From assembly GCA_964016885.1 (NCBI GenBank), contig OZ024753.1:45632001-45696000 (forward strand): 64,000 nucleotides of DNA. Reading direction: 5' to 3'. The DNA is from Eledone cirrhosa (lineage: Eukaryota). This document shows, one piece after another, positions 237 to 56,556 of this stretch (positions are counted from its first letter, which is position 1; the number at the start of each line of letters is the position of its first letter). The position numbers were made by a program, and so were the translations under genes. The notes beneath the pieces are model-generated. The model ran no database searches, was not told where the DNA came from, and was given only the letters and a program-made list of their open reading frames with translations.

Positions 237-402
237 TACGATATTAAATAAATGGAAATTATATTTATAAAACCATATTTATTTCATTATATATATTTCA
301 GGGATATCATATTAAAAATATACTCCAAATACTTGTTGAGTGCTTTTATATCAGTTATAAATATTTACTCGTTGTAACCCAACAATTTAAATATAACTTT
401 CC
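237..402. mobile_element. Deleted family B element
   Basis: 237-300 matches 46705-46762 (inverted HHR 3' half); 324-402 matches about 47279-47359; (TA)n on both sides. Confidence 0.75.
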
Positions 403-508
403 ATATATATATATATATATATTAAACATTAGTGATTTGTAAAATCGGATGATTCTTTTTGAGACAGCCTGTATATATATAAATATATTATTATTATTGT
501 TATTATTA

Positions 509-605
509 TTTGCCTTTCATCCTTACGAGGTCGATAAAATAAAGTACGAATAATACACTGGGATAATTGCTGGCCTTGTGGCAAAAGTAGAAACAATTAT
601 TATTA
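509..605 (+). mobile_element. tRNA-derived SINE, 5'-truncated
   Basis: TGCCTTTCATCCTTACGAGGTCGATAAAATAAAGTAC...AATTGCTGGCCTTGTGGCAAAAGTAGAAAC plus (ATT)n tail; matches the other copies. Confidence 0.85.
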
Positions 606-1149
606 TGATTATTACAGATTCCCTCCCCATATTACAGGTCCTACTTGTTATGCAAGCAAAACATGTTTTTCAATAGTTATTTCTATTGAAAGAGAGATAT
701 GTTTTGACTTAGAGACACCCAATGGTGTGTGTATATCATATATATAACGACTTACTTGAAATCTCATATCAACTGTGGGACACGACACTTTCTTTCTTGA
801 ACAAGATATTATTCTAAGCTATACTTTTCTCAATATTCGATAAGATTCTATGTATATTTAACTTAGAGGGGAATGCATTAATTTAGAGGATATGCAATCT
901 ATGAGAGACGCTGATCCACTCTCTGCTTCTCTGTAATACTTTAACTTCTCTCTCCCTTTTATATTGACAGTAAGTTATGAAATGATATACATTAGGGGTG
1001 TATACATATATATATATATATATATATACTTAATATATTCTAATCTGCCTATAAATCGCTTACTATCATAAATATGGACTGAAAACGAATACTTCCATAC
1101 ATACATAAAAAATATAAACATATATACATACATACAAACGCACACACAC

Positions 1150-2558
1150 ACATACATATATATATGTGTGTGTGTATGTATACGTGTGTGTGTGTGTGTA
1201 TATATATATATGTATATATATGTATATATATATATATATATGTATATATATATATATATGTATATATATATATATGTATATATATATATATGTATATATA
1301 TATATGTATATATATATGTATATATGTATATATATATATGTATATATATATATATATATGTATATATGTATGTATATATGTATATATATGTATATATATA
1401 TATATATATGTATATATGTATATATATATATATGTATATATATATATATATATGTATATATGTATGTATATATGTATATATATGTATATATATATATATA
1501 TATGTATATATGTATATATATATATATATATGTATATATATATATGTATATATATATATGTATATATATATGTATATATATATGTATATATATGTATATA
1601 TATATATGTATATATATGTATATATATATATGTATATATATGTATATATATATATATATGTATATATATATATATATATATATGTATATATATATATATA
1701 TGTATATATATATGTATATATATATATATATGTATATATATATATATATATATATGTATATATATATATATGTATATATATATGTATATATGTATATATA
1801 TATATATGTATATATGTATATATATATATGTATATATGTATATATATATATATGTATATATGTATATATATATATATATATGTATATATATATGTATATA
1901 TGTATATATATGTATATATATATATATATATATATGTATATATGTATATATATATGTATATATGTATATATATATATATATATATATATATGTATATATG
2001 TATATATGTATATATATATGTATATATGTATATATATATATATATATATATATATATATACATATATATATACATATATATATATATATATATATATATA
2101 TATATATACATATATACATATATATATATATATATATATATATATACATATATACATATATATATATATATATATACATATATACATATATATATATATA
2201 TATATATATATATATATATACATATATACATATATATATACATATATATATATATATATATATACATATATACATATATACATATATATATACATATATA
2301 TATATATATATATATACATATATACATATATATATACATATATATATATATACATATATACATATATATATACATATATATATATGTATATATATATGTA
2401 TATATGTATATATATATATATATATATATATACATATATACATATATACATATATATATACATATATATATATATATATACATATATATATATATATATA
2501 TATATATGTATATATGTATATATATATATATATATATATATATTTATGTATATATATA
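1150..2558. repeat. Interrupted (TA)n array with TATG then TACA interruptions
   Basis: Read directly from the sequence. Confidence 0.97.
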
Positions 2559-4344
2559 GTTGTTTTGTAATATGAAAATATTTGTTATAACTTGTTATAT
2601 ATCACCTAAGTTTATACATAGAATACACAGTGTGTTAGATTGTGTGTGTATGTGTGATGTTGTATCGATGTTTTTGTGACTGTATAAACAGTATATGCTT
2701 GCAATTCTACCTTTGCTGAACACATTAATATATATATTCGTTTTTATTTCTCAATAACGAAGCGATTTCGACATATTTATAACTTTATTTTGTATATCTT
2801 AAAAGGCGAGAATATTTTCGTTTATATTTCTTAGCGAGAAATATTTCGATGTGTTATATATGATGCACGAAGTTACATCTCATACACTGTATAGTCAATA
2901 GTATAGAAACATATATTTATATTACATAAGATGATGCAATATATAAGAAAGTGTAACGTATAGAGTTTGGAGTAATTGCATACATTTTAAACTTATTTTC
3001 TAAGATCTAACTCTCAGGCCCGAAGCAGCCGACATTCTGTATACCATCAGCAACACCAATAACACCAAAAGCAAAATCATCCAAAACAACAGGAATGACT
3101 ACAACAGCATCTGTAATATTATCGATAAGAACACAAAAGCAATTTCAATAACATCAACACCAACAATATAAATACAAACGAAGCATTACATATAACAGAC
3201 AACAGCAACAATAACAACAACAACCATGACGAGAGTAGCAGTGACAACAACAACAATATCTTGCAACACATCTATATCAAATTACACTTATTTTATGAAT
3301 AATGCTTTGCAACATAGAAAAAAATAAAATCACATCTCAATTAGATTTTGAGATATCAGACTGTAGAAGAAAACAAAACAAAAAGATAAATGAAGAAACA
3401 ATGGCTTCATCTCACTATAATTATAGAAATACATTAATGAAAAAATGTTAACTACCTGTAGAATTTATGACAGAAATAGTTTAGAAAAACAACGAAAAGG
3501 TGGCGAAATAAATGGCAAATATCTTAAATTTCTAGGTTTTATTCAGTGTAATATGGTGGCATGCAATTATATTCTAAACCATTTAGGATTTGCTAATATA
3601 TGGCTTGTGTTAACTTTGGTGCCAAACTATATGTTAACAATCCATTTCCCGTCCTATCATATTTTATTAATGTAACTTTAATATAATATAATATTATATA
3701 TATATATATGTGTGTGTGTATATACATATATGTATATATATATATATATATAGATACATACATATGTATATATATGTATGTATGCATATATATATGTATA
3801 AATACAGATATATATGCATGCATATATATATATATATATATATATATATATATATATATACTAACATCTCTAAGTCCGATTATATTTTATATACCCATAT
3901 TTGATTAAACCAGATAGTTCAAATAATTAAAAAAAGATGATTATGTAAGAACCGATGCTATTAATCTTGGTACATTTCACCCTCTTTACGTGGATATCTC
4001 TCTATCTCTCTATCTCAAAGTCTGACTATATTTTACTGTAATTCTTTTGATTCGTAGTCTCTTTCTTCTTCTTCTTCTTCTTCTTCTTTATCGGTTTTTG
4101 ATCATCAACTTACACACATACGTAGATATATATATATATATATATATATATATATATATATATATATATATAATACGTGTGTCCGTTTCTGTCTCTGTGT
4201 GTGTGCTCGTGAATATGTGTGTTCATCTCTCCCCCCCCCCCCTCTCTCTCTTTCCCTCCCTCTTTATCATTCTCCAATCTTTGCTCTCGATCTCATGTAT
4301 GATAGTTTAACTCTTCAATTGTTTATGAGTGACGCCTTCTTATG

Positions 4345-54400: not shown

Positions 54401-54558
54401 ATGTATATATAGATATATATATATATATAGATATATCTGTATATATATATATATAGAAATATATATGTATATATGTATATATATATATATATATATAGAT
54501 ATATATGTATATATGTATATATATATATATATATATATATATATATATATATATATAT
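51495..54558. repeat. (TA)n array of about 3 kb: TATG domain then TAGA domain
   Basis: The interruption type switches near 52380. Confidence 0.97.
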
Positions 54559-55917
54559 AACATTCCTAACATTCCGTTCTGACACAGATATATTCACCCA
54601 ATATTTAAATATTATGATTTGTGTTAAATATTTGACGAATTTTATAACATATTTAAAAATAAAATTAAAAAAAAACAGAAGGCAGAACATAATGTGAGTA
54701 TAACATAAATTTCGATAGTAGAGAGATGAATTAATAAACTTCGGAATATACACACCCATAAAGTTGATAATATTAAAGCGTCAATCTCAATATAAAACTT
54801 TGATTAAATATTTTGATTTATGATATCAAAGTGATTCTTTTCAAGCAAAACATTTGATTCTTCGAGAATTTCAATAATTGTGTAATGGAAATGAAAATAT
54901 GTAAAAAAAAAAAATATATATATATAATTATATAAATAAAGAAAATTAAAGATATTGTTGATGATCGGGATGGTGATAATAATAATAATAATTGGTATGA
55001 TAATGATGATAATAATAATATTCATATTATTGATAAAATCAATAATAATAAATTGATGTTTCTTTGTCACTCCTCTTATATAAATAGACGCATACACACG
55101 TTCATTTGTGAGCACATCTGCATACACATAATCGAGAACACACAGCCACTCACACACAGACATATATATATGTATGTATATATATGTGTGTGTGGATATT
55201 TGATATATATGTTTTTTTTATACATATATATGTATATATATACACACATACACATGCGCATATATAGAGAAGCATTGAGAGTGACACAGAGAGATGTGTG
55301 AGATATATAGAGAGAGAGAAAGAGAGAGTGAGAGAGAGAGAGAGAGGATTGAAATGAATTATATTGTAAATATAGAAATTTACAGATAAGATTTGTAATA
55401 TTCTCTGCTCCTTTGCAGTAAAAGACAGAAATAAAAATTATAAGAAGAAAATAGCCCAAAAAAAAGAAGAAAAAAGCAATTCTAAATAACACTGCATATA
55501 TATGTCTTTCGAAGATTTAAATATATAAGTTTCGAAGATTTAATATAGTAAGTGATTATTGAAATTGCCACTGCAACCATTTGTGTAAAGTTTGTGTTAT
55601 TAGAGTAACAAATGTCATATTTAATGAATAATTCAAAAATAATAATCGCATATGAGTATTTTTATGCATTCACGCAACGAAAATATGCCAAGACCCAAAT
55701 ATACATACGTTTACAGATATAGAGTTGGATATAGACACAAAAAAAAAACAACATACACACACATTGAGGCACACTGAGGAACACATATACACACACGAAA
55801 ATGATGAAAAATTATTTGTAATTCATTTTCATTTTTTCGTAGTTCATATGAAACCATATCAGACAGGTTATTATATATTATATGAAGCTATCATCTCGTC
55901 GGTTATATCCAAAATAG

Positions 55918-56262
55918 TATATATATATGTATATATATATATATATATATATTATATATATGTATATATGTGTGTATATATGATTGTATGTATGTATATA
56001 TGTGTGTGTATATATGATTGTATGTATGTATATATATATATATGTATATATGTGTGTGTATATATGATTGTATGTATGTATATATATATATATGTATATA
56101 TGTGTGTGTATATATGATTGTATGTATGTATATATATATATATATATATGTATATATGTGTGTGTATATATGATTGTATGTATGTATATATGTGTGTGTA
56201 TATATGATTGTATGTATGTATATATGTGTGTGTATATATGATTGTATGTATGTATATATGTA
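55918..56262. repeat. Minisatellite ATATGTGTGTGTATATATGATTGTATGTATGT with variable TA spacers
   Basis: About 7 units. Confidence 0.92.
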
Positions 56263-56436
56263 TAAATATACATGTGTAGTTGGAATATAATGCAATGCAT
56301 TTACAAATCAATGTTCATAACTCACAATCTGCAGGTAGATATGCTTAGATGCCGCAAAACAGACGGTCTGGTGTTTAAAAATCAGAGTTTCATCAGACGC
56401 CCCAAGGTTCCTAATTCTCGAAAATTAGAAAGTGTA

Positions 56437-56556
56437 GTAAGATACCACCTGACCATAACGCAGCAGAGTACTCGATACTTAGGGTAGTAGAGTGGGTAAT
56501 AAGCAAAGAGTCAGGACCCCGATGGCTGAACGCCGCCCTTTCGACACCTAGATCCG
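56437..56556 (-). mobile_element. Family C copy with HHR 3' half
   Basis: Minus strand GTC-GAAA-GGGCGGCGTTCAGCCA-TC-GGGGTCC...TATTACCCACTCTACTACCCTAAGTATCGAGTACTCTGCTGCGTTATGGTC, homologous to 40661-40760. Confidence 0.75.

Follow-up and report, generated by a model that had tools for sequence, protein, structure and literature searches.

Paired leader hairpins in Hydra-clade Penelope-like elements of Eledone cirrhosa and their probable role in positioning reverse transcription

Why should repeats that look otherwise dissimilar share a short motif at a nearly fixed distance from their 3′ ends? The question arises from a 64,000-nt stretch of the Eledone cirrhosa genome (assembly GCA_964016885.1, contig OZ024753.1, positions 45,632,001 to 45,696,000; hereafter the window, its first letter being position 1). 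In this stretch a preliminary description had listed ten sites of an 11-nt motif, TRTYGAGTRCY. We found that the ends of Penelope-like elements (PLEs) of the Hydra clade contain a bulged hairpin, RCTC-stem-loop-stem-2-nt bulge-GAGY-RCY, whose 3′ strand is the 11-mer. This hairpin is the first of two in the leader, each of which probably positions a start of the reverse transcriptase (RT) 3-9 nt upstream on the element RNA. The Penelope 'tail' would then likely be the interval between the two hairpins.

That the motif is not shared by chance was confirmed for both the window and the genome. All ten sites were found where they had been described; eight match the pattern exactly, and those at 6873 and 19420-19430 depart from it in the first base. 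Nine exact matches were present in the window, against 0.42 ± 0.64 expected from 100 shuffles, and the genome (3.0 Gb) contained 172,028 matches, compared with 9,441 for the reversed pattern used as a control. One exact match, at 9142, was absent from the preliminary description. It is single-copy in the genome, probably a chance match, and was rejected as a hairpin-bearing site. A microsatellite had been said to follow the motif, in most cases, at about 40-60 nt. It was seen at eight of the ten sites (starting 41-59 nt downstream, and degenerate at 6873) but not at 36872 and 56467, where there is none. In the first 3 Mb of contig C1, the first TATATA or ATATAT lay 40-69 nt downstream of 59 of 103 motif sites, compared with 210 of 3,354 other GAGT sites. 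The genome scan that had been suggested for this distance gave a strong excess at 35-65 nt over the reversed control: on the forward strand, TATATATA ((TA)4) occurred in this range after 62,773 of 85,764 motifs and after 551 of 4,959 controls. About 25 of the 103 sampled C1 sites were singletons and do not represent the first hairpin (hairpin 1).

The ten window sites belong to four families, not ten: A (6873, 40729 and 56467), B (8384, 17670, 28926 and 36872), C (334 and 47289) and N (19420). The claim that the families are dissimilar nevertheless held for their tails. When the 44-nt tails of five families were compared, all ten pairwise local alignments were no better than those of shuffled sequences (P 0.05-1.0). 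Alignment of the families over their whole tails had been named beforehand as the result that would reduce the motif to simple recent homology, and these tails are unalignable. Three exact 11-mers in family B 3′ untranslated regions (UTRs), which form one cluster of the sampled sites, are not hairpin 1. In that UTR, a second exact 11-mer stands beside an internal microsatellite without a hairpin partner (loci L133:6268, L144 and L246:3419).

The hairpin became apparent from the sequence just before the motif. ACTC was present 5-16 nt upstream of 129,220 of the 172,028 motifs, compared with 336 of the 9,441 reversed controls, and hairpin-bearing ends in this genome are on the order of 130,000. 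ACTC pairs with GAGT, TY forms the 2-nt bulge and the base following ACTC finds its partner in the R of T(A/G)T. This upper pair covaries among families, being T-A in A and B and C-G in C, E and F. The two hairpin strands are separated by a spacer of variable length (6 to 17 nt), pairs across the bulge are compensatory, and positions -8 to -5 before the hairpins are 85-95% A/T. Other families of the same genome have GCTC/GAGC hairpins; the 11-mer is the A-U variant of this genome, and elsewhere the form is GCTC...GAGCACT. In an alignment of 13 hairpins, 98.9% of 88 cells were paired, four of seven pairs showed two-sided changes and the covariation score was reached by none of 500 shuffles; the rows were hand-picked for having the hairpin, and the metagenome anchor test given below is fairer. 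At the ten window sites the 5′ strand of the hairpin was intact in four, retained through G-U pairing in two, altered by one mismatch in three and lost in one. Minimum free energy folds of the window copies often gave other pairings, which is unsurprising when copies are decayed and the hairpin is small. A scan of the window with Rfam covariance models showed, among the 150 listed of 637 matches, only microsatellite-driven microRNA matches below the gathering score. A likeness to twister and hatchet ribozymes was set aside, since Rfam showed no support for it and what is conserved is one hairpin. We also noted that family D (loci L071-L095) has a clade-typical GCTC/GAGC hairpin 1 beside the ACTC/GAGT families; no full-length copy of it was found.

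Which elements carry the hairpin? An RT fragment was found upstream of the motif at one locus, and a search with it led to a young family in 3.54-kb tandem arrays. Family A, the commonest, is very young, and its 3.54-kb tandem units have open reading frames (ORFs). In families A, B, C, E, F and H a homologous ORF follows, whose proteins are 40-50% identical between families. Intact in A, B and C (713-737 aa), it is a single ORF with RT plus a GIY-YIG domain at the C-terminus. Pfam gave a weak GIY-YIG match below the cut-off for family B only (E 0.005), and no match for the RT fragment or for the family A and C proteins. All six aligned proteins have RWR (NWR in family H) and SDKT, together with CxCX5C linkers (CNCPDRSIC, CNCLNKEAC and CNCRDRSKC) and C-terminal CxxC/CxH (CNLC or CDLC, and CKH or CMH). 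The Hydra clade was defined by a C-terminal GIY-YIG domain, an RWK motif, a change of DKG to DKT, the CxCX5C linker and CxxC/CxH (PMC8557442; this paper, PMC11167929 and PMC3846280 are compared throughout from excerpts). The published elements also agree with ours in their RW-type motif, (TA)n targets, hammerhead-like core, partial tandems, inverted 5′ copies and a tail at one end (PMC8557442). On these diagnostic motifs, and with (TA)n insertion, partial tandems and inverted 5′ copies here as well, the carriers are assigned to the Hydra clade of PLEs. Naiad, the first guess, and the Naiad/Chlamys type in general were rejected because the endonuclease is C-terminal, not N-terminal. Four 9-mers of the motif gave three matches in the excerpted Naiad/Chlamys consensi, none at an end, in a search that matches spanning line breaks would escape.

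The hammerhead core CTGATGA...GAAA was found in families B, C and N. Family A has hammerhead-like stems with an altered core, TTGAGAAGAT, where CTGANGA is expected (C1:91471000-91490999, loci L061/L062; window 40584-40785), and differs in this from the canonical hammerhead of the clade (PMC8557442). Family N (window 19340-19640; loci L343-L354) is young, with copies 97-98% identical, a hammerhead, a long hairpin 1 and an end of (CT)n followed by (TA)n. No Hydra ORF was found within 1.5 kb of it in 12 loci, and the family is possibly non-autonomous.

The two hairpins belong to the 5′ leader and precede the ATG by 20-130 nt; the order is hammerhead, end A, hairpin 1, tail, end B, hairpin 2, ATG. 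In families A, C, E, F and H, junctions of tandem or full-length copies showed hairpin 2 directly past the tail end, and the double pattern, with a second hairpin 40-70 nt after the motif, had 951 matches compared with five in the control. The spacing of the hairpins is 71-96 nt here and 55-83 nt in metagenome loci, and the ends track the hairpins. The tail is 55-96 nt long here, compared with 30-40 nt in the published Hydra elements (PMC8557442). Two kinds of repeat structure were observed beside this layout. Head-to-tail tandem units of 200-260 nt, each with a pseudo-long terminal repeat (pLTR), tail, hairpin 2 and ORF start, occur at L160/L161, L173 and L182 and resemble derivatives of the retrozyme type. 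A satellite-like tandem array at C1:14235000-14253000 (L152) has many family A hairpin variants, with an ACTC...GAGC mismatch.

We then asked where insertions end. Copies of eight reference subfamilies in the sampled loci gave 234 alignments. In 117 of them the end met a (TA)n run that could be mapped; no run was present in 78, and 39 were unmappable. We call the position before hairpin 1 site A and that before hairpin 2 site B. In 111 of the 117, from seven reference subfamilies, the run started no more than 10 nt 5′ of one of the two hairpins; among the others, two ends lay 12-17 nt before hairpin 1 and four elsewhere. All 37 inverted two-ended insertions had one A end and one B end (13 of family A, eight of B, 12 of C, one of E and three of F). 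This tally was drawn from 290 overlapping loci (1.48 Mb), many chosen for holding the motif. One end of each kind per insertion is what priming of each target strand at a different hairpin predicts. It was already known that PLE insertions have a tail at one end only (PMC8557442); our addition is the link of each end to a copy of a single motif. The hairpin of the motif itself marks the other, tail-less end, just upstream of the motif. The position of the motif 40-60 nt from the 3′ end was described correctly, but this distance seems to be a by-product, because the tailed end is set by hairpin 2, which is not copied into the insertion.

The 5′ ends of the short stubs were also not scattered. 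In families A and B they cluster 81-82 nt before the motif, about 30 nt past a TATA-like box; 24 of 87 family A stubs and nine of 50 family B stubs end within -90..-81 (references L184 and L246). In B the clustered end coincides with hammerhead stem I at its first base, and in A it falls within the stem II loop. It is probably the transcription start.

If the hairpins matter to the element, they should persist in distant relatives. A scan of metagenome contigs yielded 286 relatives. We kept 78 loci, which are 35-43% identical to family A and form 62 families at 80% nucleotide identity; 170 pattern matches in viral contigs included no relative. Among the 64 loci with at least 100 nt upstream, 29 had two hairpins, 16 had one and 19 had none, and many of the hairpin-free loci look 5′-truncated or degenerate. 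GAGYRCY anchors numbered 87 in 12,358 nt upstream of the ORF, compared with 58 in 163,475 nt of ORF, and 77 of the 87 had a Watson-Crick 4-bp partner. For the anchor test, the hairpins were anchored on the 3′ heptamer alone, with one row per family. The first upper pair of hairpin 1 was T-A in 17 of 32 families, C-G in 14 and T-T in one. These 31 Watson-Crick pairs compare with a shuffle mean of 15.7, and none of 10,000 shuffles reached 31. The same pair of hairpin 2 was Watson-Crick in 36 of 37 families. After removal of contig-end, microsatellite and cross-family hammerhead-only rows, 19 of 23 metagenome copies (3′ or inverted copies ending inside a contig) ended at -5..+1 of a hairpin. By eye, the hairpin is clear in four of the six new consensi in the excerpts of PMC8557442: Hydra-2_Amil, Hydra-1_Ajap, which has both copies, Hydra-2_Ajap and Hydra-1_Crog, where it has mismatches. 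It is only partial in Hydra-1_Amil, and the Hydra-1_Obim consensus stops before it. The consensi with the hairpin come from three other phyla (coral, sea cucumber and copepod). On these comparisons, the twin hairpin is a cis element of the whole clade. A conserved signal for 3′-end formation common to the clade had been proposed and is well supported, the clade being the Hydra PLEs; its unit, however, is the hairpin and not the linear 11-mer.

These observations suggest the following mechanism. The GIY-YIG endonuclease would nick both strands of a (TA)n target, and each nicked end would pair with a short U/A-rich stretch 3-9 nt 5′ of one hairpin, at which one RT would be docked. A protein dimer would probably make two complementary DNAs (cDNAs), one per hairpin, which would be joined head to head. 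Priming at hairpin 2 would lead to copying through hairpin 1, giving a tail with the motif 40-60 nt from its end, and priming at hairpin 1 would give an end that has no tail. Copying back to the transcription start within the pLTR would produce the abundant short stubs; the clustering of their 5′ ends suggests that most of them are copies of the stretch from the transcription start to the hairpins. Full-length copies would need a tandem or circular template, because hairpin 2 is missing from the 3′ end of a lone copy. It is possible, and we put this forward only tentatively, that such twin priming is programmed. One protein dimer might grip two hairpins of about 25 nt on a single RNA and prime both cut target strands at once, one per hairpin. 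The pair could then be a portable signal, conserved across animal phyla and sufficient to write any upstream RNA into (TA)n. If this were true, it would offer a simple model for how a telomerase-related RT first came to recognise an internal template.

Several observations weigh against priming at two RNA hairpins. Hairpin 2 of family B is reduced to GCAC/GTGC, without bulge and upper stem; for family D the search for hairpin 2 gave no clear signal (69 matches vs 24 in the control); and in 16 of 37 metagenome families hairpin 2 does not form its second upper pair. The two ends 12-17 nt before hairpin 1 are both of family B. The choice of loci by motif disfavours A-A pairs in the tally of ends, and B-B pairs, which were free to appear, did not. 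The strand test discriminated poorly, with five internal G-U pairs against two A-C pairs. The antisense stem folds about equally well (median pair probability 0.82 vs 0.83). The lower stem GCTC/GAGC was invariant in all 69 metagenome family rows, which suits sequence-specific DNA binding as well as RNA structure.

The invariant stem and the equal antisense folding leave room for an endonuclease that reads DNA. The GIY-YIG enzyme might recognise the two motifs as a duplex inverted repeat, or in a single-stranded cDNA or antisense intermediate, cut 3-9 nt upstream and so trim both ends of a longer intermediate. Craig et al. ascribed the tail to endonuclease-mediated resolution (PMC8557442), the Drosophila Penelope endonuclease needs the tail for recognition, as cited by Frangieh et al. 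(PMC11167929), and an antisense template has been argued for PLEs (PMC3846280). However, a reader of duplex DNA would need neither the variable spacer nor the compensatory pairs across the bulge, the tail ends of a Poseidon element were equated with RT start sites by direct in vitro mapping (PMC11167929), and the 5′ ends here cluster at a TATA-linked sense start. We consider such DNA reading unlikely. It is less likely still that the hairpins serve transcription, translation or RNA packaging, with ends falling nearby only through U/A-rich stretches that pair with (TA)n primers. Their place in the leader just before the start codon and the A/T-rich stretch 5′ of each would fit that role, but although other A/T-rich stretches are numerous in the leader, two windows of 10 nt hold 111 of the 117 ends. 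The strict rule of one A and one B end would not be expected from passive pairing, and the ends follow the hairpins even though their spacing varies. Finally, the motif might be a functionless leftover of recent homology among related families, given that the ten window sites represent four families and most genome matches come from a few high-copy ones. This is largely refuted, because the tails are unalignable and the hairpin covaries in the metagenome families; the proteins of different families have diverged widely and the hairpin is kept in other phyla, and we give the idea almost no credence.

Other systems, too, have a structured RNA next to an internal template that sets the start or the stop of copying, namely the template-boundary element of telomerase RNA, hepadnavirus epsilon and the 3′ UTR of R2. 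The likeness is by analogy only: in telomerase the boundary element halts copying 5′ of the template, whereas the Hydra hairpins lie 3′ of the start. A closer parallel is the Poseidon element PAc of Anolis carolinensis, for which both target strands were cut and extended in vitro. There, RT initiates at two internal positions, which delimit the tail, and a dimer was predicted (PMC11167929). PAc thus resembles our elements in having two fixed internal ends that bound an optional tail, with structure near the start sites. It differs in that one AC-rich stem-loop inside the ORF holds both starts, with no conserved motif reported in the excerpts of PMC11167929, whereas the elements here have two separate, sequence-conserved hairpins, each 3′ of an end, in the leader and throughout the clade. 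The evidence for PAc is biochemical (PMC11167929), and that for the hairpins is genomic. The twin hairpins are a feature of a known clade and, by analogy, probably act like the two-start mechanism of PAc. In the excerpts of PMC8557442 the hairpin goes unmentioned and the tail is put down to endonuclease resolution. We found no published description of twin hairpins in the literature searched, which did not include subscription journals and Repbase Reports, and they are apparently unpublished.

How PLEs choose a template and acquire their odd ends (pLTRs, inverted copies and one-sided tails) is mostly open, and only one element has been reconstituted. A short twin motif, shared by different phyla, from which both ends can be predicted to a few bases is an exact target for mutagenesis and structural work. 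With it, Hydra elements and their stubs can be located and bounded easily, and the hairpin pair could define the smallest signal needed by a tool that writes RNA into DNA at (TA)n. PLEs are the closest mobile relatives of telomerase, their RTs being the sister group of telomerase RT (PMC8557442).

The copies in the window range from young to decayed. A young one is a family A fold-back stub (40584..40785, plus strand), 98.6% identical to the family A reference, with hairpin 1 at 40713-40739, an inverted tail-less end at 40584 and a tailed end running into (TA)n at about 40785. Two other family A copies are older: a decayed tail at 6861..6929 (plus strand; motif 6873-6883; 87% to the reference), in which the 5′ strand of the hairpin is lost, and an old end at 56427..56545 (minus strand; hairpin 1 at 56467-56493; 78.5% to the reference), in which the tail is decayed and no microsatellite follows. 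In family B, a fold-back stub between two (TA)n runs (8343..8539, minus strand) has hairpin 1 at 8384-8405, with its 5′ strand decayed to AATC, and hammerhead cores starting at 8471 (minus) and 8481 (plus). A second one (17621..17722, plus strand) has hairpin 1 at 17659-17680 as GCTC/GAGT with a G-U closing pair, and ends at (TC)n. Of family B type are also a decayed hairpin 1 at 28914..28936 (plus strand; AGTC for ACTC), followed by (TA)n from 28981, and an old end with a hammerhead core at 36781..36931 (plus strand; motif 36872-36882, TCTC for ACTC), which has no microsatellite past its tail. Family C has hairpin 1 at 322..344 (plus strand), where ACTC at 322-325 pairs with the GAGT inside the motif at 334-344, within a fold-back stub (239-402) made of an inverted tail-less end and a direct tailed end. 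A further family C end, at 47159..47359 (plus strand), has a hammerhead-like core at 47173, hairpin 1 at 47277-47299 as ATTC/GAGT with a U-G pair, a tailed end running into (TA)n and an inverted tail-less partner end at about 46708. Hairpin 1 of the young, hammerhead-bearing family N (19420..19462, minus strand) has a 6-bp upper stem, CGGAGT/ACTTCG.

Other repeats share the window with these copies. Palindromic or fold-back stretches without the motif lie at 23403-23639, 24231-24286 and 48354-48551. A separate dispersed repeat of about 190 nt has at least seven copies that are 75-90% alike (511-595, 4963-5168, 12514-12709, 29646-29842, 31179-31368, 48134-48353 and 49315-49800) and is probably a short interspersed nuclear element.

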